Assembly: GCF_964355755.1 (NCBI RefSeq)
Contig: NC_092678.1
Location: 4,232,422 to 4,296,421 of the forward strand
Origin: Antedon mediterranea
Taxonomy: Eukaryota; Animalia; Echinodermata
DNA length: 64,000 nucleotides
Reading direction: 5' to 3'
The position numbers and the translations under genes were made by a program. The notes below the pieces were generated by a model that worked only from the letters and a program-made list of their open reading frames with translations, ran no database searches and had not been told where the DNA came from. Positions 1-61,585 of this stretch are shown here, in pieces (position 1 is the first letter of the stretch; each line of letters opens with the position of its first letter).

Positions 1-427
1 ATATTGATTATAAAGCTTTTATTTGTTTGCATATTTTAGTGTTTATTATTCTGTTTCTATTTTTTTTAGGCTTCAGGAAGAAGCTGAGCATTTCATCAGC
101 CAAGGAGTGTAGGCCCCTGAAATGGACAAGTTTTTATATAAGATTTATGTTACTAAAATATTGCTCGTTTAATGATGAATCTTCAATTCCAGAGTAAGAA
201 TTAAAAATAGGATTTAGCATGGGGTATCACTAAAGATGGTGAAATTTCCCTTTTATTTATTCATGATACTGTAAGATTTTTAGTCGGTCGGTCTGTCTGT
301 CGGTCCGGTATCACTATGCATTGTAGCACGCGACTTAATGGCTGTTGGCCTTGTTACTATAAAGAAACATGTATAAATGCCACAATGTGTATCAAAATTG
401 CTGATTAGTCTACTAGGCCTCTTTAAG
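1..427. repeat. Rearranged local duplication: 1-119 is an inverted copy of 2866-2987; 120-427 is a direct copy of 3281-3513 with a ~75-bp insertion
   Basis: Aligned by eye: TTTTAGGCTTCAGGAAGAAGCTGAG..CAAGGAGTG matches the reverse complement of ~2878-2921; AGATTTATGTTACTAAAATATTGCTCG...AGGCCTCTTTAAG matches 3302-3513. Confidence 0.9.
281..355 (+). mobile_element. Short Helentron/DINE-1-like (HINE) non-autonomous insertion
   Basis: Absent from the paralogous copy at ~3440; inserted in a T run with no TSD; sub-terminal AGTCG/CGACT, (GTCG/GTCT)n microsatellite and a 3' hairpin ending GGCCTTGTT. Confidence 0.6.
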
Positions 428-1028: not shown

Positions 1029-1945
1029 ATCTCCAACGTTGATGGACGCTCATGAAGCCTTAAATGTGATACAATGGGTCGCATGGGTACAGTATCCACG
1101 ATATAAATTATTTTTATTATTCGTACATTGACTGTACATATAACATACAGTATGTTAATGATAAACTCATTTATGCAATGCAGGTTCCGAAGATCTATTC
1201 CATTTCCTTTTTTTACATTTCTGGTGATCATAGCATTTGTGTAATTTTATGTAATTTTCTTTACAGTTTTATTGTCATAATTATGCAAATCAAAAGGAAT
1301 TTCCATTTAAGTGGACTAATAAAATGTCTTGAATATGTAAAAATACCTTCTTAAAATATTTGGGATGGGGGCGGGGATGGGGGAAGAACATTACCTTGTG
1401 AATACATGCTGTATATACTTTATATGTTTAAATTTACTGTTATATTTAGTTTATTCATGGTTTTATGACATAAAATTTGTATTATTGAGAGACAATATCG
1501 TAATAAGACAATTAATCAATATGTAGGCTAGGCCTAAGTGATAATTTTCATTGCTTTACAACAGCTGGGTCAGGCTTGAATTATTCTTTTGCATTGTAGC
1601 ATAGGAATGTAGTATAACAATGTCGTAATACACATTTTGTGATATCAGCCTTGTGACTTAATTTATAAATGAGTTGAAATTCACAACTGTAGAGGGCTGT
1701 GTTTTTGGTGTTGGATCTTGTGATTGGAAGAATAATATTTATAATGGCATATTCTGTAGAAAAAGCTATTTCCATTCATCCACAATGTCTAGGCATATGC
1801 CTCCATTTTGTATATAGGCCTATACAAGGAAGCCTAGAAAAGCATGCAAAAAAATGCATGCACAAGAAAAGGAAAAGAAATTAGAGAGGAGAGTGTGCAT
1901 CTCAAAAAAATAAATACAAAATAAATAAACAAAATTAAACAAAAT

Positions 1946-2915
1946 TTACCATGTTGCTTCATATCGAACTGGTGGCCGACTCCTTCTCCCGGATCTAGTT
2001 CTGTAAACCGTGGCTGCCAGAGCCGGGGGTGTCACCACAGCCGGAGGCACAACCGTGGCCAGAGGTACCATCACTGCCGGAGGCCCCACCACAACGGGTG
2101 CGGCAGGGACCTCTGGAGGAGCGGGTACTTCTGGTTGGGCTGGCACATCCAGTGCGGCAGACACCTCATCCTCATCATCACTGATGACGACCGGACAGTC
2201 ATCTGTGATTAGAACCGGTTCATCCTCCATAATGACTACCGGTTCATCATCATCACTAATAAGAACTGGTTCTTCATCAATGATTCGCACCGGTTCATCA
2301 TCATCATCACTAATGACTACCGGTGCGTAATCAACGATTTGAACCAGTTCATTATTCCATCTCCAACCGACCGGTCGATCATCAATGAAGACAGCCGGAT
2401 TATCATCCACAGGTTCACCATACATTTCATAAATTTCTTCCCTTCTTGGTAAATTATCTCTATCCAGTGGACCTAAACGCCTGTGCCATCCTTCTAGGAA
2501 GTACCAATTAAATCCATATGGAACACACCTACGATCAACATAATCAGGATAATCAACTAAAGGATAAAAAACAGGTTCAGGCACAGGAAATAAAAATACA
2601 GGTGGACGGATTCGGGGTAAATTTGGTGATGCTGGTGGTGATCGTGGGGGAGATGCTGGTGGTGGTGGAGATGCTGGTGGTGGTGGAGATGCTGGTGGTG
2701 GTGGAGATGCTGGTGGAGAGGGAGATGCTGGTGGAGAGGGAGATGCTGGTGGTGGTGCTGGTCGGGGTGGTTGTGCTGGGGAGTGGTGGACAACTCTTGG
2801 ATTTCGGCCAAAAGGATGAAATCTACGACACCTTCTTGATCTTGAACGTGGTTCAGAATTTGCTCCAGAGGCCTTCACTCCTTGGCTGATGAAATTCTCA
2901 GCTTCTTCCTGAAGC
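1946..2915 (-). CDS. Orphan terminal coding exon: basic N-part, (PPASP)n tract, six SIM-like motifs, C-terminal YRTRSGRRSRPPVRY
   Basis: 970-nt open GC-rich exon behind a strong acceptor (TTTTTTTAG|G at 2916/2915); stop at 1946; upstream exon/start not identified; the ORF-track ATG at 2956 lies in intron-like sequence. Confidence 0.6.
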
Positions 2916-3513
2916 CTAAAAAAAACAGAAACAGAATAATAAATACAAATATGCAAACAAATATAATATACATATTATAATCAATATTGATCTATTATAT
3001 GAAATTGGTTAATCAAAAATTGTCGTCTATTATGCTTTATCTAATGATAATAGAATAAAGTGCCAGTGGATACAGACTTCACCTTTAGTTCAGAGGGCAC
3101 AAGATTATTTTATTTTATTTTGTTCAAAAGGCCTACCTTATTATTTTATTTGGTATAAAAAAATAATTTACACTAGGTATATATTATATATAAATCGGGC
3201 ATAGAGAAACACTACAAGTGACCCGGACCATGTATGTATGTATTTGCTAGTTTTATGGAGTAATCATTGATGTACTGTACAAATGAACAAGTTTTTATAT
3301 AAGATTTATGTTACTAAAATATTGCTCGTTTAATGATGAATCTTCAATTCCAGAGTAAGAATTAAAAATAGCATTTAGCATGGGGTATCACTAAAGATGG
3401 TGAAATTTCCCTTTTATTTATTCATGATACTGTAAGAGATTTTTACTATAAAAAAACATGTATAAATGCCACAATGTGTATCAAAATTGCTGATTAGTCT
3501 AGGCCTCTTTAAG

Positions 3514-4650
3514 CTAAAGCAAACCGATGAATTCGTCAACAATTTTGTCATGCAAATAAAAGAGAAATCTGCGTTGTGTAAATTCAATGACGTAGAATCA
3601 GAAGGATGGTTGATCGAAGCGCTAATAGTAGGTGTCGCATCTAACATAATACAGTGAGAATTGTTAGGAAAAGATTAAAAATTAAAACTCATTGAAGAAA
3701 TTGATATGGCTAAGTGACACAAAGCTACTGTGCACCACATGGATCATTTTAGAAAACTTAATAATGGACATTTAACACCATCATGTGTGAATGCAAAGAA
3801 CATTGTCCGGCTGCAAAATCCAAATGTAGGAAATGTTGTAAAATTAGTCATTGGATATCAAAGTGTCATTCATCGAACAACCAAGGGACGACAAACAAAA
3901 AACATTTTAGACAACATGGTCGGTGGAACATATAGAATGTGTGAAGAGTTTGAAAACTTGGACTTGGACTGGTGAAATTGAAATTATTATTATGTACACT
4001 CCTCCTGTATAAGAAATGACAAAACTAAAGCAGAAAGTATAATTAATATTAAGTTACAAAATAGAAGGGGTAAGCTATGTACATTAAGAGGAAAGTTAGA
4101 TTCAGGTGCTGAAGTAAATGTTAGGATTTTTAGGGAAATGTTTCCAGATATGTACGGGTTACCATTGCAAAATTGCAAGTTCCTTAAGATATACAAAGCT
4201 AAGAGCATATAATAACACCACTATCCCAAGCTATGGGTATGTTGAAATTGAATGTGAATATAATGGGAAGTGGGCTATCGCAGAGGCAGAATACGCCCTG
4301 TTTGGACTACCTATCAAGTTATGCTTAAATACAATAAATACCATCGAAGGTTGGCACAGAGAATTGCCTGGTACTAGAGAGGCATTATTGGCCAAGTACC
4401 CAAAGCAGTTAAAGGTATAGGTAGATTTTCAGGTGAATTTCATATAACCTTGAAGGAAAATGCACAACTAGGTGTACAACCCCAGAAAGTATCCTATCAA
4501 TATTAAAGATGATATAGAAGAGTTGGATAGAATGGAGAAAATTGGTGTAATTTCTAAGGTCACTGAATCTACTGATTGCTTTAAGCAGAAAGAGTAATGT
4601 TAAACTGCGTATATGTCTAGATTCATCTAAATTAAATAAGGTTCCAAAAC
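3514..4650 (+). mobile_element. Degenerate Ty3/Gypsy LTR retrotransposon gag-pol remnant
   Basis: Gag-like KQTDEFVNNFVMQIKEKSALCKF..LIEALIVGV; zinc knuckle CPAAKSKCRKCCKISHWISKC (~3804-3866); aspartic protease LDSGAEVNV (~4096-4122); RT start ELDRMEKIGVISKV..KLRICLD; many stops and frameshifts, no LTRs seen. Confidence 0.88.
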
Positions 4651-4972
4651 ACACTGAGGTTGCAGCGACTAAAATTACATTATTATGCAGCCATAAGATT
4701 ATAAAGTTACGTATACAAAATGATGTTTGAACTCGATACCGAGTCCCGCAATCGATATAGATAGATAGAAAGACCAGGAGTGGGCGAACAGATCACTTAA
4801 CTGAATCAGAAAAGTAGGTGATGATTGTGTTCACATTTTAATATGTTATTTGAAATAAATAGGAATATGAACAGATTCTTCTGAATCTTATATTAATGTT
4901 CTATTGTGAACATAATATATATTATGGCAGCACTTGCCAGTTCTTATACTATGATGTTATCCAAATTCCTTC

Positions 4973-5085
4973 ACTTGCACTGATGAAGGCTAGTGTTGCC
5001 CGAAAGCTCTGCTAACTTTTCTGGTTGTTTTACTTTATTGTTTTGATTTAGCTTTTTTTTCGTATCTCCATTGAGTTCTAGCCAC
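4973..5085 (+). mobile_element. Penelope-like element terminal-repeat fragment with a minimal hammerhead ribozyme motif (copy 1)
   Basis: GCA-CTGATGA-(A)GGC-TAGTGTT-GCC(C)-GAAA-GC-TC-TGC at 4977-5012; whole segment repeated at 40898-41006. Confidence 0.65.
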
Positions 5086-5204
5086 TAATATGTAACTTTA
5101 TTTTGAAGTTTCATTTAACTCTGACTATATCATTTTTGTGTAAAATTTAAAAATAAAAACTAATATTGATTCATTGTGTGTGTGTGTGTCAAATTGAAAA
5201 TTAT

Positions 5205-6886
5205 AACTAGACATGAAACTAGTCACTTTGACGAGTTAGTTATCCGCTCGACAAACGTCATGTGCACGTCATACGTTGGAATGTTGCACACATAAAAAGA
5301 TTATGGCATTATGACCTGAACTGAAGAATATGATATGTTGTTAGTGCTAAATTCTGTCTATTTTGTGTCATAGTCATATAAAGTTTACAGTACACAGTAT
5401 AATCTGTATACATATTACATACAGTGTAGAATAGGCCAAATTACGGGAAGTGCCATTTATTCCAATTTTTAACATGGTGACGGTATCAAAATGAAACACG
5501 AAGATGGCAATTTGGAAAGAAATTATCTCAGCAAAAACATATTAACGTGTAGAAGAAATTTGAACACGTGAAATATGGATGTGCGCTATTTGAAATGTGA
5601 TGAACTAAAATGCAAAATATGAAAATACGACTTTTTTTATTCAACTGGCCATATGATAATGTCACAACCTCTGATTGGCAAAATGTTAAATGAATTTGTA
5701 TCTATAATCCAATAGCTTCCAGAAAATGTTTTAATCATGATTATCACTTTTTATTCTGACGAGCTATAACAGATCGAAATTTACTGTAAAGCTGAAAATA
5801 AGTGACCAACATTATTAACACTTTTAGACATGATGACGTCATAAAAATTAAAATATTTTTAACTCATGCGAAAGATAGTTGATTAACGTCGACAATATTA
5901 AAATCATGCGGGGAAATGGAATACGTATAAGCGAGATGCGCTCTGTTGAATGTGATGAGCAATAACGAAAGAGACAAAAATTCTATATTTTACATTCGTC
6001 TGGCCATACGATGACGTCACAATGTCCGGTTAGCCATATTGATTTATGATCCGATATCTACAACTCATCACCTTCCAGAATATGTAATTTTAAAAAAGTT
6101 CACCTCGTGGTTTAGAATCTATGACTGTTTAAAAAAAGGCATAATTTTGACAAATTTTTGAACTTTTTCATCAAAAACGCACATAAAGTATCCAATTCAA
6201 CGTGCCCGTATGACGTAATTGTAAGTTGAAATTGTTTTAAAATTGGTAAAATTACTATAAAAGGCTGGAAAAACATATAAAAAAAAATACTTTTAGCGCT
6301 ACGTGTGCACCACGCGCATAAAATTGTTCGCGCGCTCAAAATGTCATGATCAGCGTAGAAAGTTGATTAAAAATTAATTTTGAATTTTAAATGCGCGTGC
6401 GCGCGTAACTTTGTGTAAAACACGCAATTTTTTTTCCACAGAAAGTTAGCGCATGATATAAATTAAACTTTTGCTAAGTTTCAATTTAAATTGTTATATG
6501 GTTTTAAATCTATGTTAAATACGCGAAATTCATAAAATCGCGCGTAAGTCACGTTGCGCAACTCTGACGTCATTCAAAAATAGGAGGTGCACAACTTCAC
6601 GTAAATGTCCATATGCAGACAAAGTTATGAAATGTTATGTTTACAAGTTTTTGAGATACGCGAGACACAAAAATGAGGGAGAAAGAAAGAAGAAGAAAAA
6701 AAAGTAACAGGACGATTACAAGGAGTTATCCGCTGAATGCGGATAACTAATAAAGAAGATGAAAAAAAAAAAGATATTTACAATAACAAGGGTTATCCTC
6801 AACTTCAAAAGTTGCGGATAACCCAAAAAAAAAAAAAGCAACAGGACAATTACAAGGAGTTATCCGCTACTAAGCGGATAACTAAT
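5205..6886 (-). mobile_element. Long non-autonomous Helentron/HINE-like element with a triplicated hairpin end
   Basis: TTAGTTATCCGC at 5236-5247 is inverted to GCGGATAACTAA at 6739-6750 and 6874-6885; AACTAG..CTAGT stem-loop at 5205-5223; GAA-rich tract near 6680-6700; no coding capacity. Confidence 0.6.
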
Positions 6887-9800
6887 TATGAGCCTACATA
6901 TTACTGTGCCGGTAACCGCATATTGCGGTTTTGCCGTTCCATGGATATTGGTCGACCTGACTATGGAGGTATACCTCCATGACCTGATCATAGTACCATG
7001 TGAGTATCGCCAGAGCTTAAGTAAAAAAGAGCCTCACGTCACGCCGTCACAGCCTACTAACTAGCTAAGGCCAGAAGAAGTCTTACTGAATTAAATTTAC
7101 TCATGTTATTAAAGGCCTACACAATTACATGTTACTAAAACAGCTGAAAAGCCTACTAACTAAGGTGCTACTCACAGGCGAAGCCTTCGCAACCTTCTTG
7201 TGGACATTGTTTTTTTTTTAGCCTATAACTGATAGTATGATTTATAAGGAAAGAGGTGCGCGGGCTAATTCGACGTGGTTTTATAGACATGGAAATCAAT
7301 GAAGCGTAACATCACCTGCAACATTATGCATATCATGTATGATTGAAGACCAATCAAAATAGAGATTGAAACAACTAACCCTCTCATTATTCTATTTGTT
7401 TATTTATGCTATTTATTAATTCTGCTCTTCATAGAAGTTGCATTACACAGTAAATGGTGCTACCCGCTATGTCAGGAAAGAATAGGCCTACCTCGTTTTG
7501 AATGAGTTTCGTGCTAAGAACCATCGAAAAACGTACTCTACTTCAAATGTATATGAATTATAAAAAATACAGTCCCAACAACGCAGCAATAGTCAGTGCG
7601 TTGCAAGCAAATTATAAATGAATCCAAAATACCATAACCACTTCTTGCAGATTGTAAAATGAAAGTGACTAAGGAGCGCGTATGGTTCGACAGTGCACAT
7701 GTAAAGTGAACAAATGTATAAATAAATAATAAATGTTTTAAATTATAGGTGGAATAAAATAATTGTAGGCCTATGAGTATTTGGACTTCTTATAATGTCT
7801 AAATATAATACTAATTTACTTCATAATTATAGTGTTTCGAGTGTTTGATTTGTTAAGCAATAATGGTGCAATTTTGCGTGCAGCGGCGGCTTTTTATTAT
7901 CTTAACTAATTTTAAGCCGTACGTCAAAACTACAAGACGGATCATTATCACGATTCCAGATTCCGGTGGTGGGGTGGGGGGGGGGGGGGGAGCATTTCTC
8001 GTATAAAATGGAATTATACAAATATGCACACAAAAGAAACCTATTATATGAAAAATATATCGGTATATATTTAATTTTTTTTAAATGATTTAAAAGGTCA
8101 TGGTCACAATCCAAAAAAACAAATTACTAATTACTCATTGTCTAAACAGGTAAGTTTCCATCAGAAAATGTGTTGAACTTAGGTTCATAGTGCAACAAAA
8201 TAAAAATATAAAGTATTATTACGAATAAAAAAAATAGATAAAATATTTTTTTAAAAATAATAATGATGATGGAAAAAAAGATCCCTAGCTGGATTTGAAC
8301 GAGGGATATCAACTGTGAAAGGCTGGATACATAACCATTACACCAAACTCTCACTCACAACGCCGTAGTGAAATTAGCCTAATCACTCAAAGCCTCAAGA
8401 CACAAAAATAAAAAATACATATATTTTTGGGGAAATTTTTAAATACCGGAATGTCATAGTAGGCAGATTATGTACTCTTCTAGTTCATTATTTATTTAAT
8501 CCTTCTTAATATTTACATAACAAATTAAAAATTAATTTGGGAGACCAGTGTCAACTATTATTATTAATATTTAAAAACTGATTTTCGCTTATTTAATTGA
8601 ATTGATATCTAAAATGGGGAGGGTCCCACTTTGTTTGCTTAAATCAATTTTATTTGTTGATATAAAGTTTGCGGTACACCACGTATATTAGTTTTGAAAA
8701 GAACTGATGAGTTTCTCGACGTTTTGATCAATATGCTTCAATTGTCCTCAGGAGTTTTTATTATTATTTGTCATTATCATTTTGAAATGTGATATGTACA
8801 AAGAAATTGTCATTGTCAACATAAGTGAACTAAATCACTGCAGTAGCTGAGCCAAACCGAGCTGACAACAAAACATGACCGGGGAATAATGTGAAGCGCT
8901 TAGAAGCATTGTGTAATGAGCGTTGTGTTGAACTATGTCTATATACACTATCAAAAACATGATGATGTTATATCACTACCATATTTAGGCTAAGCATATC
9001 ACTACCATATTTGGCCACATCACACCTTTTTGTCAAACTAGTATAGACAGCAGAGCTTAAGGATGATTATTATTATCCTTCAACCTTTAGAATGAGTCAA
9101 TCGAGACTCCTGTTTTTGGAGTTGTTTCAGATTTAATTATGTGTTTTAACTAATTTAAATGGACAGTGTGCCACGCGTGGACAGTGTGCCTATGATTTTG
9201 TATGCGCAATTTGAACGATTTGTGCAATTTGAAAAGAAAGGATCGGAACTTGCATAGCAAAACTTACTTAAAACAAAAGCCTAAAAATGATTATTTTCAT
9301 CATTAAAATCAAATTCATTATTAAGCTAAATATCCGCTTGAACTGAACTGAACTTTATTGTATCTCTTTGATATCAGAGGCACAGTCTCAATGAGATGTG
9401 CAACAAGTATACAGTACCTTTTAAAAAAAAAGACAGAAAAACAAATTACAAAATATTTACAGAGTATGCTTTGTCATGACAAACCACTGAAAAAGTTGAG
9501 ATCTTCAAATATTAACTTGTATATTAAAAAAAACAAAAAAACAATTATTAAAATAAGCTGAGAAAGATTAAAAACTAAGAACTTATGTACACAATTAAGT
9601 TTGAGAAGGAATTATATTAAAGATATCATTTCGTGTGTTGCATGTTTTTCGAAAATATTACTTGCTAATTCATATTTATCATGGGTTAATTGAATTGGTG
9701 TAACTTTTAATTCATTGTGGATTTCAAGATCATCAAGGAATAAGTGGTATTTAATATCTAGAAGTAGTAAACAATTCCCAATTTGAAGTGACAGATAACA

Positions 9801-10423
9801 CAGCACAATAATTCCCTTCTGATTTATCTGTCACGGATTGTTTAAACAAACTAAAATGATGCAACATTAATTTATTTAGGTTAAATGCCTAATTTAAAAT
9901 TAGTCATTAGACACGGGTACAAAAACGTTCTACTTTTAATATAGACAGTTATTGTTTATCCCCAAATTCAAAGAAATTAATCCGCATAAAAATAGAACGA
10001 TGCTGATGTCATGGCATTCAAAGAATCATAGCCCATTTTCCTTTTACTACTTTTATTGATATCCCCTGCATTGTAATGAATTTATGAATATTTTCCATAA
10101 AAACAATAGTGACTGTGAATTCAATAGGAAAATTACAAAACATCAGGATTTTCAAACGTGTGTGTAAGCCTATTTGCGGGGTACGTAAGCCTCCAGAAAC
10201 CACATTTTCACGTAATAACCTTTATGTTTTGTCTGGTCTTTTATGCGACAGCAGAATTTGAATGAAATTACAAGAAGAAGAGTGACAGAAAGACAGAAAA
10301 GAACAAAGCAGCAACGGATTGATTTGCGACGACAAGATGTCTTCAGGACATGGGTATAATCCAACGCCTAAAATATCCTTTGAAATTAAATCTTTGATTT
10401 CAACCCCAACATGCCTTTAGTTT

Positions 10424-10460: not shown

Positions 10461-10523
10461 TGATCCAACGTTACACCATGCTCATAGGATCCGCCATCAA
10501 CAACTAGTTAGCAGTACGTCAAA

Positions 10524-13679
<3,156 letters not shown>

Positions 13680-14277
13680 CCTTTCATGCAGCTTTTTAAC
13701 AAACCAAGGAACCTTTATCAGCACCTCAACAAAGTCACGAATATGATGAACGGTGGAATGCCCGAGAGTTTTTTTTTTACTGTCGAATTGACATAAGTAC
13801 AATACCCAGAATACACTTTAATTAAGCTATAATTCATTACCGATTAGACATTAGTTATCACAAAGTTGATAAAGAAATAATAAATCTGAAAATGGATAGA
13901 ACGCATGTCTCTGTGTATTTCTTTAAAATCAATGCTCAGTAATAATAATACAACTATTGTTTAAAGATGTCCTTTGGTAAAATAGTTATAAAATGACATC
14001 ACAGAATTGAAAATTCTCATTTAAGACAAACATACAAATGAAAGACGGAAGTACTTAGCAAAGAATATAAAAGACAAAAGGCACTCAACAAAACATGACG
14101 GGATATATAAATACATCAAACATCGGGCATCATATCTACATTTACTTTGTGGCTCAATAAAAGTTACAGTATCTTATCTCGTGTGGTGAAACTAATTCGC
14201 TATAATAAAATACCATAAAACTCACTGAAGCTACACCGGATACAAACACTTAGATAATATTTAAATATCATATCAAA

Positions 14278-14386
14278 ATTGGTAACACACTTATTATTTT
14301 GTGATTGGTCCACAAATATTGGCAACACACTTATTATTTTATGACTGGTCCACCGAAGAACACGAAGCCCAAAGCACCTATATAAA
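14278..14386 (+). promoter_or_regulatory. Promoter of subtilase 2: 40-bp tandem duplication with CCAAT boxes, plus TATA box
   Basis: ATTGG(T/C)AACACACTTATTATTTT(G/A)TGA(T/C)TGGTCCAC occurs twice (14278-14353); TATATAAA at 14379-14386. Confidence 0.6.
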
Positions 14387-14439
14387 TAATCCACACAACA
14401 CCAATACAAGACAAGTTGCACGTCCAACAAGTTAAAAAT

Positions 14440-17618
<3,179 letters not shown>

Positions 17619-25531: not shown

Positions 25532-28500
25532 TTAATAAATCGCGACTCGTTTGTCACGTTGTTTACTTCGAACCTTTGTCCGTGCTTTGAAAGCAGCTGC
25601 ATTATATTTCGTCTGAAAGTACAAAATGTTTCAACTTTATTTTCGCAGCTCTAAATTTTTGCAATTTGAAAAACATAGATATTAGATAATATTAAAAAAT
25701 TATGAAAAATACAATGAAAAGATGTAACGTTTTGTTATTAAGTGAAGTTGTGGTTGAGTTAATGAAAAATTATTTATGAAAAAAGTGCATTGAGTTGAGA
25801 ATAGAAACTCTAAAAAAATAAAATTCTACATACCCTTTCAAATTTGCTGCCTCTATTTGAATGAGCCACCAGGACAACTGGGGCACCAAGATCAAATATT
25901 TCACGTAGTAACTCGTTCTCTCGTAGGTGTGTGTTGATACCGGAAGATAATGCCTCACGAAAAACTCCATACTGACGTCTCCGCGACCAGCTGTCAATTT
26001 CGATGAATTCTGTGCCAAACTTTATCTGTTCAAAAGGTGCTTCATATTCCTGGATAAATAAAACATTTGAAAAAAATGTTAGAAAAACTTTTTCGACGGT
26101 AACAATTTTATGTATTTATTTTTTGTCATAATCATATCCATCTCATCTTAAAGTATGTATATGTATTAATTAACACATAGAAAAATAGTGGCCAAAATAG
26201 TTATTTCTAGTCAACTAGTCATAGCTGTTCAAAGTATGATTATCACGAACAACAACAAAGGGAATAACTTTAAGAAACATCCAATCTTTTGGAGTACTGG
26301 AGAGTGACATAGATAGTGATTGCACTGTTAATCTTTAGGGCACTCCATCCACACATGTTTGTATAATGTACGTGTACTCGCGGAAATTGTATAAAATAAT
26401 ATTATTACCTCTATTGTTCTGATGATATCTCTAAAACTGGATCTCTGTGTTCTTCTGTCTTTCTTTGCTCTGTATTTGTTGCTATCGGTGGCTAGTTCTT
26501 TTAACATACCTAAAAGGTCTTCTAAATTCTCACCAACAAATTCCTGAAAAAAAAATATAAAATTGGTACAGTTGCTATTTTTACTATAATATCATGTATC
26601 TGTCGATATTTGGCGTATCAGTACTAATTTATCTTCATTCAATTCCATCCATTTGAGTACACTGTGTGGCGTCAGCAGGATCTATTGAAATAAATCATCA
26701 TTTACACCAGACTTAATTTTAATTTCAAAACCGGAAATGTAAGAGTTTAGAATAGGGGGTAAAGAGGAAGAAAGAAATGAACTGGGAAATTACCTCATCA
26801 TTTTCTCGTTGTAGTTCGTAAAATAGAGCGATAGCTTCACCAGCTACTATTCTTAAATTTACATCTTCAATTTGCAGTAACTCAGGAAGTCTATCAAAAT
26901 GTCTGAAAAACAAATTTAATCATAACCATTATCTAGAAAGTAGAAAACTAGTAATAATGAACTAATGCTCTAGGCCCAAAAATACTCTAGAGCTAAAATA
27001 ACCTAAACATATACTCTATAAAGCTTTCCGAGAATTCTTGTGTTTTGAAAAATATTTGTGGAATGAACTTTAAAACGCATTCTGAAACTATTTATGAGTG
27101 ACCATAAGAATTTAATAATGAAACTCACGTGTATGTGATGCGTTCTATGTAAATTTGAGGTGCAATGGTTAATAGCAATGTCCATGCAGACAATGCAGCA
27201 CAATGTAATGAATGGATACCAGGACTATGCAACGGAACCGAACCATCACCCTTGAGGAAGGAAGCGCTGAACACCTGTGTCAGATTATCCATGATCTCAA
27301 TAACAACCTACAATGTAGAAAACAAATAGTGAATGGTTTTCAGATTAGACATACAGATGTTGGAAACTTATTTTTTAAAGCGGCACAGTATTACACCGGT
27401 GTTGAAAGAGCTTCACTGGCTGCCAGTGTGTAAGAGAATAACGTTTAAAATCTCGCTGATCACTTACAAAGCGTTACATGGGCTTGCCCCTGATTATATT
27501 CGCGAGCTCATTTCTGAATACATCCCGTCACGCTCTTTAAGGTCTGGTGATCAATTTCTTCTAACATTACCAAAATCATCCACTGCTTATGGTAGAAGGT
27601 CTTTTGCAGCAATAGCACCTTCATTATGGAACAAACTTCCACTCTTTGTGAGACTTGCTCCTTCAGTCAGTATTTTGAAATCACGACTGAAAGCCCATCT
27701 GTTCTCATCCGGTATTAATTAAATTATTCATTCATTCATTTATTCCTTCCCCGAAACCTTGACTCAGAAATACCGTGATGGTGTCCGGCGGGGGATAGTT
27801 TTACCTTAGTTAAGCTTTGTTACATTTTTTTTTTCACATTATTGATTGTCTCCATCCCCGAAACCTCGACTAAGAAATACCGGAATGGTGTCCGGCGGGG
27901 GATAGTTTATTACCATTAGTTAAGGTCCTATGTAAAGCACCTAGAGGGGTCAGTGATCCATTGGCGCTATATAAATATAAATTATTATTATTATTATTTT
28001 TTAAATCAAAGATCAAGAATGAATAGTTGGATTACCTGCATATCACCAGCAGCTATAAACGCACATAGTCCCAGAGTGGTGGCACACTACAAGAACAAAA
28101 TTGGGAAAATTATGCCAAATTTACTAATCAAAACTAAAGTAGAACACTTCTTATGGGACTATTCAGGGGACATCCATGGCAACTTTCATTACCGAAAAAA
28201 ATATTTTCTTTATAAATTAAAAATGGTAACGCCAAAAGGGTGCGAGTTCAATTGGGTAAACATTCACAAGACAGACTTGTTGAACAGAAAAGTAAGTGTG
28301 CATCAGTACTAATTTATCTTCATTCAATTCCATCCATTTGAGTACACTGTGTGGCGTCAGCAGGATCTATTGAAATAAATCATCATTTACACAAACAATT
28401 TCATATTGCAAACATTTTTTAATCGCAAAATAAATATTAATTGAAAACTTACAGCAGCACGCGCCTTTGGTGAAGCATTGTTATCGGCAAGAGTGGTTTG

Positions 28501-31500
28501 CAACAGCGTCCTCAACTTGTTAAACAGTTCTTCGCATTCAAGACCACCGCCAAGACTCAGGAAAACAAGGCCTGCAACATTTGCTGCAAGTGCCTGTTCA
28601 TCACCTTTACCTTTAAAATAAGAAAAACAAATTTGAATACAGTAGTACTATGCTTTGTATATGAGCATGACAATTTAGATATACAGTAGAACTAGTATGA
28701 AAACAACTTTTATTTTTGGCTTGCAAGATGGTCTTGTGGTGTAAACTACACCTTTCAGGAAAACCAGGCTTGCAACCTGCAACTGCCTGTTCATCACCTT
28801 TACCTTTAAATAGTAAAAGAAAATTTAAATACAGTAGTACTATGCTTTGAATGTGACAATTTAGATATATGACTATGAAAACAATTTTTATTATTAGATT
28901 GCAAGATGGTCTTTTGGTGTAAAATACAGCTTTTCTTGTTTTTTTATTGAGGTATTGTCAAAAATTAAAGCAAACTAGTATTGCTTATTTGTCTGGATTA
29001 GGTCCGAAGGAAACACTACAGGCAATTTGTTTGGGTCATATCCTGTATAACAACAATAGTAAGTTATGAAAATACTATTGTCTATCAATTCTGTACACAA
29101 TAGTAGACTTAGGTATAAAATCCTCAACCAACCTCCCACTACTTGTTTTCATGCCCCTAGTTGACATTACACTTCTAGATTGATACACGCTGAGATTGCT
29201 ACACATTGAGATTGTTATGTGTTTAAATTTAAAAGAATCCATGTTGCAATGTGTCTATGTTGCTACGCTCCTAGGTTGCTACACTTTACAATCATCACTC
29301 CTCTACATTTCTAGGTTGCTATGCTTTTAGATTGCTACACTTTTTAAGTTGCTACATTTCTAGGTTGCCACACTTCTGGATCGCTTCACTTTTAGATTGC
29401 TACGCTTCTAGATTGCTATGCTTTTAAACTACGCTTTTAAGTTGCTACGCTTCTAGATTGCTACACTTGCGGATTGCTTTACTTCCAGATTGCTACAATT
29501 TTAAGTTGCTAAACTTATAGATTGCTACATTTTAAAGTTGATACACTCTTAGTTTGCTACGCTTTTAAGTTACTACGCTTCTAGATTGCTACGCTTATAA
29601 ATTTCTACATTTGTAGATTGCTATACTTTTAGATTGCTACACCTTTAAGTTGCTACATTTTTAGGTTGCAACATTGCTCTGCTTCTAGATTACTACACTT
29701 TCATATTGCTACGCTTCTAGGTTGCTACATTTTAAATTGCTACGCTTCTAGATTGCTACACTTTTATAGTCTTGGTTGCTACGCTACGATTGTATTGGTC
29801 TAATAGTAATTATACAGGGATGCCTTATAATAGATGCCAACAATTTAAGCTTACCTTTTTTAATGCACCTCTCTGCGCAATCCAAGATGGTAACCTTCCT
29901 GCCGTCTACAAAGTCTTGCAGGTACTTCTTGCAAAGAGCAGCCTGAACAGCAGCTAAACACTTCTGCCTTCCTTGTGCACTGAATATCACAAATAATGTA
30001 AATAATTATAAATCCTATAATGTTTGCATGTATGATATTACATCAGTGTGTACAAATAGCCCAATGGTATAAGGTTTTTTGAAGAGTAAACTTCAAACAA
30101 GATCTGTACTATTTTTAGACTAATAATGCTTCTTGTTAGTACCTCTTTTGTGTAGTACCATCAATAGCGTCTTTCAACTTGTCTTCAAAATCTTCATTGG
30201 CAATCGATTCATCAATGCCGTCGTTAGCAGCAAGGAGGGCACCGTCATCAACGATGCTTCCTGGATCCGATATATGACTACTTGTGACACTCCCTGAGTC
30301 ATTGTCTGCCTCTTCTTCATTCATCTCATTCGCTCCACGACTTGCTCCTACAAAATAAAAACATAGCCATCGTAACATGCATAAATAACATGATATTTTT
30401 ATCGAATGGTGCATGTTATATAAAGAAATGCTTGTTTTTTTTTGCCTCAACATTAGATCAAATAAATATTGATTGTGGTTCAATCTTTTTAAAAACAATA
30501 TTAAAGGTGTATCAGTACTAGATTATCTTCATTCAATTCCATCCTTTTGAGTACACTGTGTGGCGTCAGCAGGATCTATTGAAAAAAATCATCATTTACA
30601 CCATACTATTATATTCATAATCATTTCATTTCTTTATTCGACAACAAGCGGTCCAGGGGTTGCGACAGCAACAGAGCGCCATAACACATTTGTGTCCGCA
30701 ACCCCTGTAACATACAACTTAATACAAGTTAAAAATGAATATAAAATATACAGAATATATAAAAAATTTAATTAATTTGTATTACTGTGTTACACAATTT
30801 AAAATACACCTATACAATTAAAATAAATTTAGCGTTTATCAAGCAGATATTTAACAGCAGTATTGAATTGAATTTTTACATTTCAGTACAGTAGCAGCAT
30901 TCAACTTGACGCAATAGCATGCAAGTATGTGAGTCGCATTATGTTGCTAATGTAAAGTCTAAGAACCCGAGTTAGTGTTACTGTACAGCAATTTATATAG
31001 GAATGTGTAGATGAACTTTATTTAACCTACACAAATATGGCTATCTATCCTATCTATCAATCTATCTATCTCTGAAACATAATTATGTTTACATTGTCTA
31101 TAAAGTTAATAGTTAACTATTTATATGATAAAAAATATACATGTGCATTTAATGGGGCCCCATATAATGTGCTTCAAATTGATAATGAAAACTGGGAGAA
31201 TTGATAATCTTCAATTGGATGAAAAAGAAAACAAGTTTTTTAGTGAATTGAAATGTAGTATATTAATAAAATAATTTTATGAATATGAATAAAAAATGAT
31301 TGAATTCATTAATACTTTGCAGAACTATGTAATTTGTTACAGTTTTTAATATGGTATACCATCCAAAATATTGAGCAATCAATAAAGCTAACAGATTACA
31401 GACATATTTCTCAACCATATGGAATTGTTGACTGTACATCACAAGTAATGGCCTTATGCATCTCAATCATTGGAAATAGTATTAAACAAATTAACGTTGA

Positions 31501-61359: not shown

Positions 61360-61585
61360 ACTAAATTTTCAAAACTCACCCTAAACTTGTCAATACTCAC
61401 CCAAAACTTTTCGAAACTCACTCTAAATTTCAGAATTTACCTAAAAATTTGGGAACTCAACCTAAACTTTACAAAACTCACTCTAAACTTGTTGGAAATC
61501 ACCTTAAACTTTTCGGAATTCACCCTAAACTTTTCAAGACTCACCCTAAACTTTTTGGAACTCAACCTTAACTTTTCGGAACTTT
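61360..61585. repeat. Minisatellite, 21-bp unit (AAACTCACCCTAAACTTTTCG), ~10 copies
   Basis: Periodic CTAAACTT; explains the repetitive ORF 61303-61605. Confidence 0.9.

Follow-up and report, generated by a model that had tools for sequence, protein, structure and literature searches.

Structure and surroundings of the exon

The feature under study lies at 2915-1946 on the minus strand of the window (the whole 64-kb stretch analysed) and is predicted to be the last coding exon of a gene, of which it represents a part. One nucleotide closing a split codon is followed by 322 codons and a TAA stop (1948-1946). The minus strand is free of stops from 2974 to 1946, and the resulting 342 codons from stop to stop form the longest open frame of the window, the runner-up having 153. 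The five other frames contain 9-41 stops across the exon, and base shuffles (n = 2000) gave a longest open frame of 97 codons on average and 241 at most, versus the 342 observed. GC contents at the three codon positions were 0.69, 0.53 and 0.29. The exon is preceded by a strong splice acceptor (2916-2935, minus strand; pyrimidine tract and TAG), predicted from its sequence pattern, with pyrimidines at 15 of 17 positions and a rank in the top 0.25% of 3235 YAG sites. Since the first Met occurs as late as residue 164, at a position variable among copies, and the acceptor coincides with the exon start, the sequence is taken as an exon and not as a whole gene. A donor scan of 2918-10400 yielded no convincing upstream coding exon: seven sites were recorded, and in the residues displayed none comes after a frame that starts with ATG and has the correct phase. 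Runs X8 and X10 contained no splice joint and are uninformative on expression, X8 being RNA only by guess. The AATAAA nearest 3' of the stop (1450-1455, minus strand) is a candidate polyadenylation signal. About 900 bases beyond the stop codon, a 25-bp tandem repeat extends over 732-1028 (11.6 copies, 97% matches).

Homologue searches, limited by the low complexity of the exon, gave no relatives. No protein homologue was found at lengths 177-564 and 565-2000 in a database including Antedon and Anneissia proteins; a library of 1.84 billion sequences produced no homologue and one Pro-rich chance match (P0002); IMG/VR (tblastn) and JGI contigs contained no related locus; and Pfam detected neither a RING nor any other domain in the exon. 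PDB matches reached best E values of 1.6 and 0.34, and a match to Fcp1 was rejected. Among the literature matches listed, none dealt with this protein, with a transposon-encoded array of SUMO-interacting motifs (SIMs) or with the viral motif described below. The first-pass annotation had called the sequence an orphan protein; this agrees with the empty searches, but the unit concerned is a last exon and not a whole gene.

At the left edge of the window, 1-119 (plus strand) repeats the acceptor and exon start (2866-2987) in inverted orientation at 88%, with an early stop. Next to it, 120-427 (plus strand) duplicates part of the intron (3281-3513) in direct orientation at 94-98%, apart from a high-copy insert that breaks into it near 283-350; a tandem unit of some 3.1 kb is thereby suggested. 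Our reading of 1-427 is that of a tandem paralogue broken by inversion and situated mostly beyond the window. Very high-copy repeats at 283-350 and 4970-6000 were recorded in four of the four runs compared there.

On the other side, a decayed Gypsy-like remnant (3514-4790, plus strand) runs antisense to the exon. It starts mid-gag, displays a DSG protease motif and the start of a reverse transcriptase, and ends with a TRSGR tail (4773-4787). It is full of stops and frameshifts, and the exon frame does stay open beside it, as had been remarked in the first-pass annotation. Its label comes from motifs recognized by eye, with no profile support in Pfam or PDB. The exon shares with such elements the five residues TRSGR alone, no homology to Gag or Pol being found. 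The surroundings of the exon yielded neither a TIR nor an LTR pair enclosing it, nor any transposase or viral gene, and the sole flanking direct repeat (120-427 and 3281-3513) is devoid of TG..CA ends and abuts mid-gag.

The exon displays host-like traits: a strong acceptor, an AT-rich intron and a GC3 of 0.29 versus 0.31-0.39 in host frames. A RhoGEF exon in the window shares 92% identity with Antedon mediterranea and 88% with Anneissia japonica, which identifies the host as a feather star. Nothing unusual marks the further neighbours, which comprise subtilase, SAM-domain and IFRD-like genes (the IFRD match being weak with E 0.029). The two tandem subtilase (S8) genes at 10512-17405 (plus strand) have matching exons some 3.7-3.8 kb apart. 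Within the IFRD-like gene, 27333-27722 (plus strand) looks by eye like the ORF2 end of a non-LTR retrotransposon, Pfam being silent, and at 28387-28957 (minus strand) a short exon-like IFRD-like stretch occurs in two copies, the second frameshifted. Degenerate 16-bp and 21-bp minisatellites were found at 29303-29766 and 61361-61583.

Regions of the encoded protein

All regions are read on the minus strand, where the motifs reported earlier were found as placed: RRFHPF at 2827-2810, the repeated units at 2323-2165 and the tail at 2005-1961. The basic patch (2797-2843) harbours RRFHPF, is retained in copies where divergence of the flanking sequence sets in near 2797 and 2843/2844, and is likely a nuclear import signal, perhaps akin to a PY-NLS. 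Next comes a Pro/Ser spacer (2618-2779; Pro at 30 of 54 positions and numerous SP sites) built on an 18-bp repeat; the PPASP tract with an 18-bp unit had been announced at about 2628-2760, and the repeat measured here spans 2644-2757 (6.3 copies, 92% matches). The middle region (2324-2617) is rich in aromatic residues (F/W/Y 18 of 98) and its fold is without confidence (single-sequence AF2 pLDDT 41.7); it includes an additional SIM-like LVQIV at 2347-2333. Between array and tail, a Pro/Ala/Val linker (2006-2164) differs between copies, with a 66-nt skip at 2022-2089 and divergence past 2005.

The array (2165-2323) is composed of six tandem SIM-like units, each P-V-x-I followed by acidic residues, and three of them carry CK2-type S-x-x-D/E sites. 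Acidic residues amount to 22 of 53. The SIMa pattern, as defined in a passage of PMC3395311, is matched by units 1, 3, 4 and 6 (4/6). The strict hXhh/hhXh core with I/V/L, taken from a passage of PMC8616421 in which SIM patterns are described as degenerate, is found in one unit of six (unit 2) and in the upstream LVQIV. Unit 5 fits none of the SIM patterns tested. Shuffled sequences contained 0.06 SIMa matches on average; four matches were reached in 0 of 20000 shuffles, and in 1 of 20000 within residues 190-260, values that overstate independence because the units arose by duplication. Elsewhere in the 127,996 residues of the six-frame translation, four other SIMa matches occur. One of the copy differences listed, L218V, shifts a unit toward the commonest one. 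No structure was predicted over the array, but the single-sequence model was low throughout (pLDDT 43.6). Readings of the units as HP1 PxVxL, calcineurin PxIxIT or LIR motifs, judged by eye, fitted more poorly than SIM.

The units follow each other at 10, 8, 9, 8 and 8 residues. For RNF4, SIMs that are too close are unable to bind adjacent SUMOs jointly, according to a passage of PMC3901395 that does not include the critical distances. By analogy, units only 8-10 residues apart may leave too little room for neighbouring SUMOs, and poly-SUMO chain reading is not assured; it is more likely that alternate units, 16-18 residues apart, would do the work. The proposal of a SIM array reading poly-SUMO chains is thus retained as to its SIM-like character (four units of the SIMa type, unit 2 of the hXhh type) and weakened as to chain reading, given the spacing and unit 5, which is of neither type.

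Lysine is nearly absent from the exon. It codes for a single Lys (residue 14) and 28 Arg, leaving residues 15-322 (308 residues) lysine-free, when 6.2 Lys would be expected from its own base use (p = 0.014) and seven host frames display a share of 8.3%. Lysine deserts of at least 150 residues are described, in a passage of PMC10665810, as occurring in fewer than 10% of the proteins in eukaryotes and as typical of Slx5 and RING ligases. Because this desert recalls SUMO-targeted ubiquitin ligases, a ligase-targeting role is preferred below; the analogy is suggestive only, and Pro/Ala-rich low complexity also lowers Lys content.

The tail (1961-2005) bears a YRTRSGR...PPVRY motif, a predicted tether to the nucleosome acidic patch with Arg 307 of the exon as anchor. 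Acidic-patch contacts listed in a passage of PMC9040877 involve M6-R7-L8-R9 in LANA, M483-V484-T485-R486-S487 in IE1 and Y537, L539, R540 and Y549 in foamy virus Gag. When Y304-R305-T306-R307-S308 was aligned by hand, all places matched this register (Gag Y537, LANA R7, IE1 T485, anchor Arg and IE1 S487, respectively), and the tail combines the anchor Arg with a hydrophobic residue at -3, T/L at -1 and S at +1. This agrees with the resemblance of RxRSG to the LANA anchor suggested previously. No match to known tethers was found for the tail in PDB.

TRSGR-like tails are common at the ends of Gypsy Pol proteins, and [TL]RSGR occurs at one other site in the six frames of the window, the end of the Gypsy-like remnant (4773-4787, plus strand). 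A pattern scan of IMG/VR recorded at least 120 loci with the motif (labelled L001-L124), which was recovered in frame in 119 loci and continued with EP in 117 of these among the matches listed. Its carrier is a small acidic protein that has, besides a near-invariant RTRSGR...PPxRYEP, a tract of D/E residues and NLxGF as a short conserved motif. Of the six positions left free by the pattern, three show the same residue in the exon as in the viral consensus, and a fourth shows R in place of K. The retroelement-type tail claimed earlier is not specific to retroelements, a giant-virus family having a near-identical motif. Because the motif is common to mobile and viral proteins, the gene is not dated to Gypsy.

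Copies and selection

Eleven public runs contain the stretch or part of it (three organism labels and one run without label), and six were compared. Coverage gaps (X7 over 1800-1931; X5 past 3800) were not taken as absence, nor summed depth as copy number. Of organism A, one piece was identical to the stretch and another differed at 17 of 102 bases (2531-2632), versus about 1% or less in its non-coding single-copy pieces. In organism B, at least three sequence types occur near 2844 and near the tail, which exceeds one diploid locus. The exon types represented are several, but none was recovered on a long contig. Organisms B and C display near-identical, gap-free exon pieces (1 difference in 197; 3 in 254), and their non-coding pieces, as listed, are mostly gapped. 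The additional copies observed match the exon far better than its flanks.

Conservation follows the motifs. Diverged copies can be aligned across the basic patch (2797-2843), the array and the tail (1968-2005), which are the very motifs singled out by the first-pass annotation, and their loose ends start at the edges of patch and tail. Those past 2005, 2843 and 2844 remain open when read in frame. One copy preserves V-R-Y of the tail through synonymous changes, and the tail motif is retained in frame where the flanks of a copy have diverged. Broken forms also exist: one has a 4-nt loss at 2594, one a frame-shifting joint 2355-2793, and one organism B contig fuses 1826 to 3230, leaving out the exon (1827-3229).

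Within the array, seven codons in each of the six units require minimally 1, 3 and 12 changes at codon positions 1, 2 and 3, respectively (p = 8e-4), and P, V and I are invariant (6/6) although all four V codons are in use. Of the copy differences listed, 35 fall in the exon; 16 of these are synonymous, 19 replace a residue and none is nonsense, with pN/pS of 0.41-0.50 (p 0.008-0.03). This input consisted of 40 of 71 difference rows, from which 5 outside the exon were removed; each site was scored singly, copies were pooled including broken ones, and one row equals the inverted copy within the window. The synonymous excess is moderate evidence of selection. Four of the five exon indels listed keep the frame; they are sited in GAT runs, where slippage yields triplets anyway, and little weight was therefore given to triplet indels. 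A Fisher test on indels was discarded as invalid, the intron gaps coming from one contig per run. The comparison of copies called for in the first-pass annotation hence speaks, through pN/pS, against neutral decay, some copies being nonetheless broken. The exon looks coding and under selection, and likely belongs to a small, fast-evolving, lineage-restricted gene family of feather stars.

Interpretation

The reading we favour, with a probability a little short of even, is that of a host family of SUMO-plus-nucleosome adaptors, disordered and nuclear, by which a ligase is probably directed to its targets. The basic patch would ensure nuclear import, the C-terminal arginine anchor would dock on the H2A-H2B acidic patch, and the six-unit array would gather SUMO-modified chromatin proteins; CK2 and proline-directed kinases, for which sites are present, could tune the protein. 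Hand-over to an effector such as a SUMO-directed ubiquitin ligase, encoded in a missing upstream exon or provided by a partner, is a guess, as neither an upstream coding exon in 2918-10400 nor a RING in the exon was found. The multiple SIMs by which SUMO-targeted ubiquitin ligases are recognized are present as patterns only. The sequences themselves show the open frame, several diverged copies, selection on repeats and motifs, and the lysine desert; that the exon is spliced, of host origin and linked to a ligase, and that its product enters the nucleus and binds SUMO and nucleosomes, is what we infer.

On a separate question, the family may be real and the present copy a dead, orphaned exon whose 5' part was lost or severed by Gypsy-like sequence, working copies being elsewhere; we consider this unlikely, and it fits either origin. 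The empty donor scan, the inversion-broken paralogue next door, the 1826-3230 joint in organism B and the frame-breaking forms (2594; 2355-2793) agree with it. Frame and acceptor are intact, however, and the gap-free, near-identical exon pieces of organisms B and C, set against mostly gapped non-coding ones, speak against it.

The most probable rival of the host reading, though an unlikely one, is that a low-copy transposon or an endogenous virus contributed the exon as part of an accessory gene, coding for a chromatin-tethered SUMO sponge that would blunt SUMO-dependent silencing in the manner of IE1. The presence of the motif in viruses and in the Gypsy-like remnant speaks against the host reading and favours such a mobile origin. 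So do the multiple copies, some broken or rearranged, the lack of a homologue despite Antedon and Anneissia proteins in the database, and the precedent of IE1, which joins SIMs with an acidic-patch tail (passages of PMC8155523 and PMC9040877). Yet no LTR pair, TIR, transposase, viral gene or element boundary was found nearby, IMG/VR and JGI contigs were without a related locus, the similarity of the extra copies observed lies in the exon far more than in the flanks, the remnant runs antisense from mid-gag onward, and intron and GC3 are host-like. The transposon- or virus-derived origin proposed in the first-pass annotation is accordingly not demonstrated.

The fuller form of that proposal is less probable again: an anti-silencer born in a transposon or virus, acting as a lysine-free, nucleosome-clamped scaffold that would take up SUMO through an amplified array of six sites and disarm SUMO-dependent transposon silencing, much as IE1 attacks PML bodies, and surviving as a small feather-star family. 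It would entail, at the same low probability, a tether common to Gypsy Pol, giant viruses and herpesviruses. A role of SUMO in piRNA silencing is mentioned in a passage of 10.1101/533091.

It is distinctly improbable that the repeats, instead of being SUMO sites, form an acidic and hydrophobic surface of a general kind (like an activation domain or a histone chaperone) joined to the tether as in the giant-virus protein. The viral family does pair the motif with a D/E tract (39%) and, among the matches listed, its frames show SIMa in 1 of 119; SIM patterns are moreover degenerate (passage of PMC8616421). Against this stand P-V-x-I fixed in all six units, the acidic C-terminal flanks, the CK2-type serines and L218V. 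Finally, non-coding repeat DNA with a frame open by chance, suggested by the 18-, 24-30- and 3-bp repeats that make up much of the exon, the missing homologues and the low-confidence fold, is very hard to reconcile with third-position bias, synonymous excess, 0 nonsense changes among the 35 differences listed, motif-wise conservation and a strong acceptor in phase.

Comparison with known systems

Should binding hold, the favoured host adaptor would work like HCMV IE1 or like the SIM arm of RNF4/Slx5, membership in either being unproven. IE1 also combines SIMs with a C-terminal acidic-patch tether and T-R-S around the anchor (passages of PMC9040877 and PMC8155523); it differs in being herpesviral with two SIMs, compared with six units in an exon predicted to be spliced in host fashion, and no sequence match was found between them. 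RNF4 shares tandem SIMs in a disordered stretch (passage of PMC3901395) and Slx5 a long lysine desert (passage of PMC10665810). Unlike these, the exon is devoid of a RING, its units are tightly packed and of the SIMa type without VDLT, and its C-terminal tether is of the viral type.

The KSHV LANA N-terminus and foamy virus Gag resemble the tail by a hydrophobic residue at -3 and an Arg anchor, Gag additionally by Tyr at -3 and a distal Tyr, which in Gag lies 9 residues from the anchor instead of 11. In contrast to both, the exon has no DNA-binding or capsid part and no PDB sequence match. Gypsy Pol proteins share the TRSGR that also ends the adjacent remnant. The exon, however, is located 5' of gag, has a predicted intron acceptor, and shows neither bounding LTRs nor Pol homology. 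Plant LTR elements are reported to carry extra antisense ORFs (passages of PMC7264820 and PMC11963269).

SUMO readers and tethers to the nucleosome acidic patch are each well known singly. Here both modules occur in one lineage-restricted piece of protein consisting of motifs only, with selection on those motifs. If binding holds, an echinoderm would have put together on its own a module resembling IE1 or Slx5, which would also serve as a compact tool for probing how SUMO-dependent silencing is targeted or evaded.

Giant-virus proteins with the tail motif

The tail also links an unnamed family of giant-virus proteins to a putative chromatin-tethering role. Examples are L022:2812-3060 and L050:2815-3054 (minus strand) on Nucleocytoviricota contigs of IMG/VR. 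These proteins measure about 80-155 aa in the seven displayed in full, adjoin primase, Nudix, cap methyltransferase and capsid genes, and had no Pfam family in the three of three tested. RTRSGR...PPxRY is shared with the exon. In the viral proteins, however, the motif is N-terminal, ahead of the acidic tract, without Tyr at -3 and in a viral gene context, whereas it is C-terminal in the exon, and no homology beyond the motif was found by tblastn in IMG/VR. For one member, the Atlas pointed to similar Nucleocytoviricota clusters (0.77-0.78), which is no more than a lead. Its sequence makes the family a candidate for a viral tether to nucleosomes or a viral histone chaperone. Neighbouring H2A and H2B genes were observed on an IMG/VR contig of 912 kb (L125:1862-3062), whose acidic-patch residues look intact by eye.
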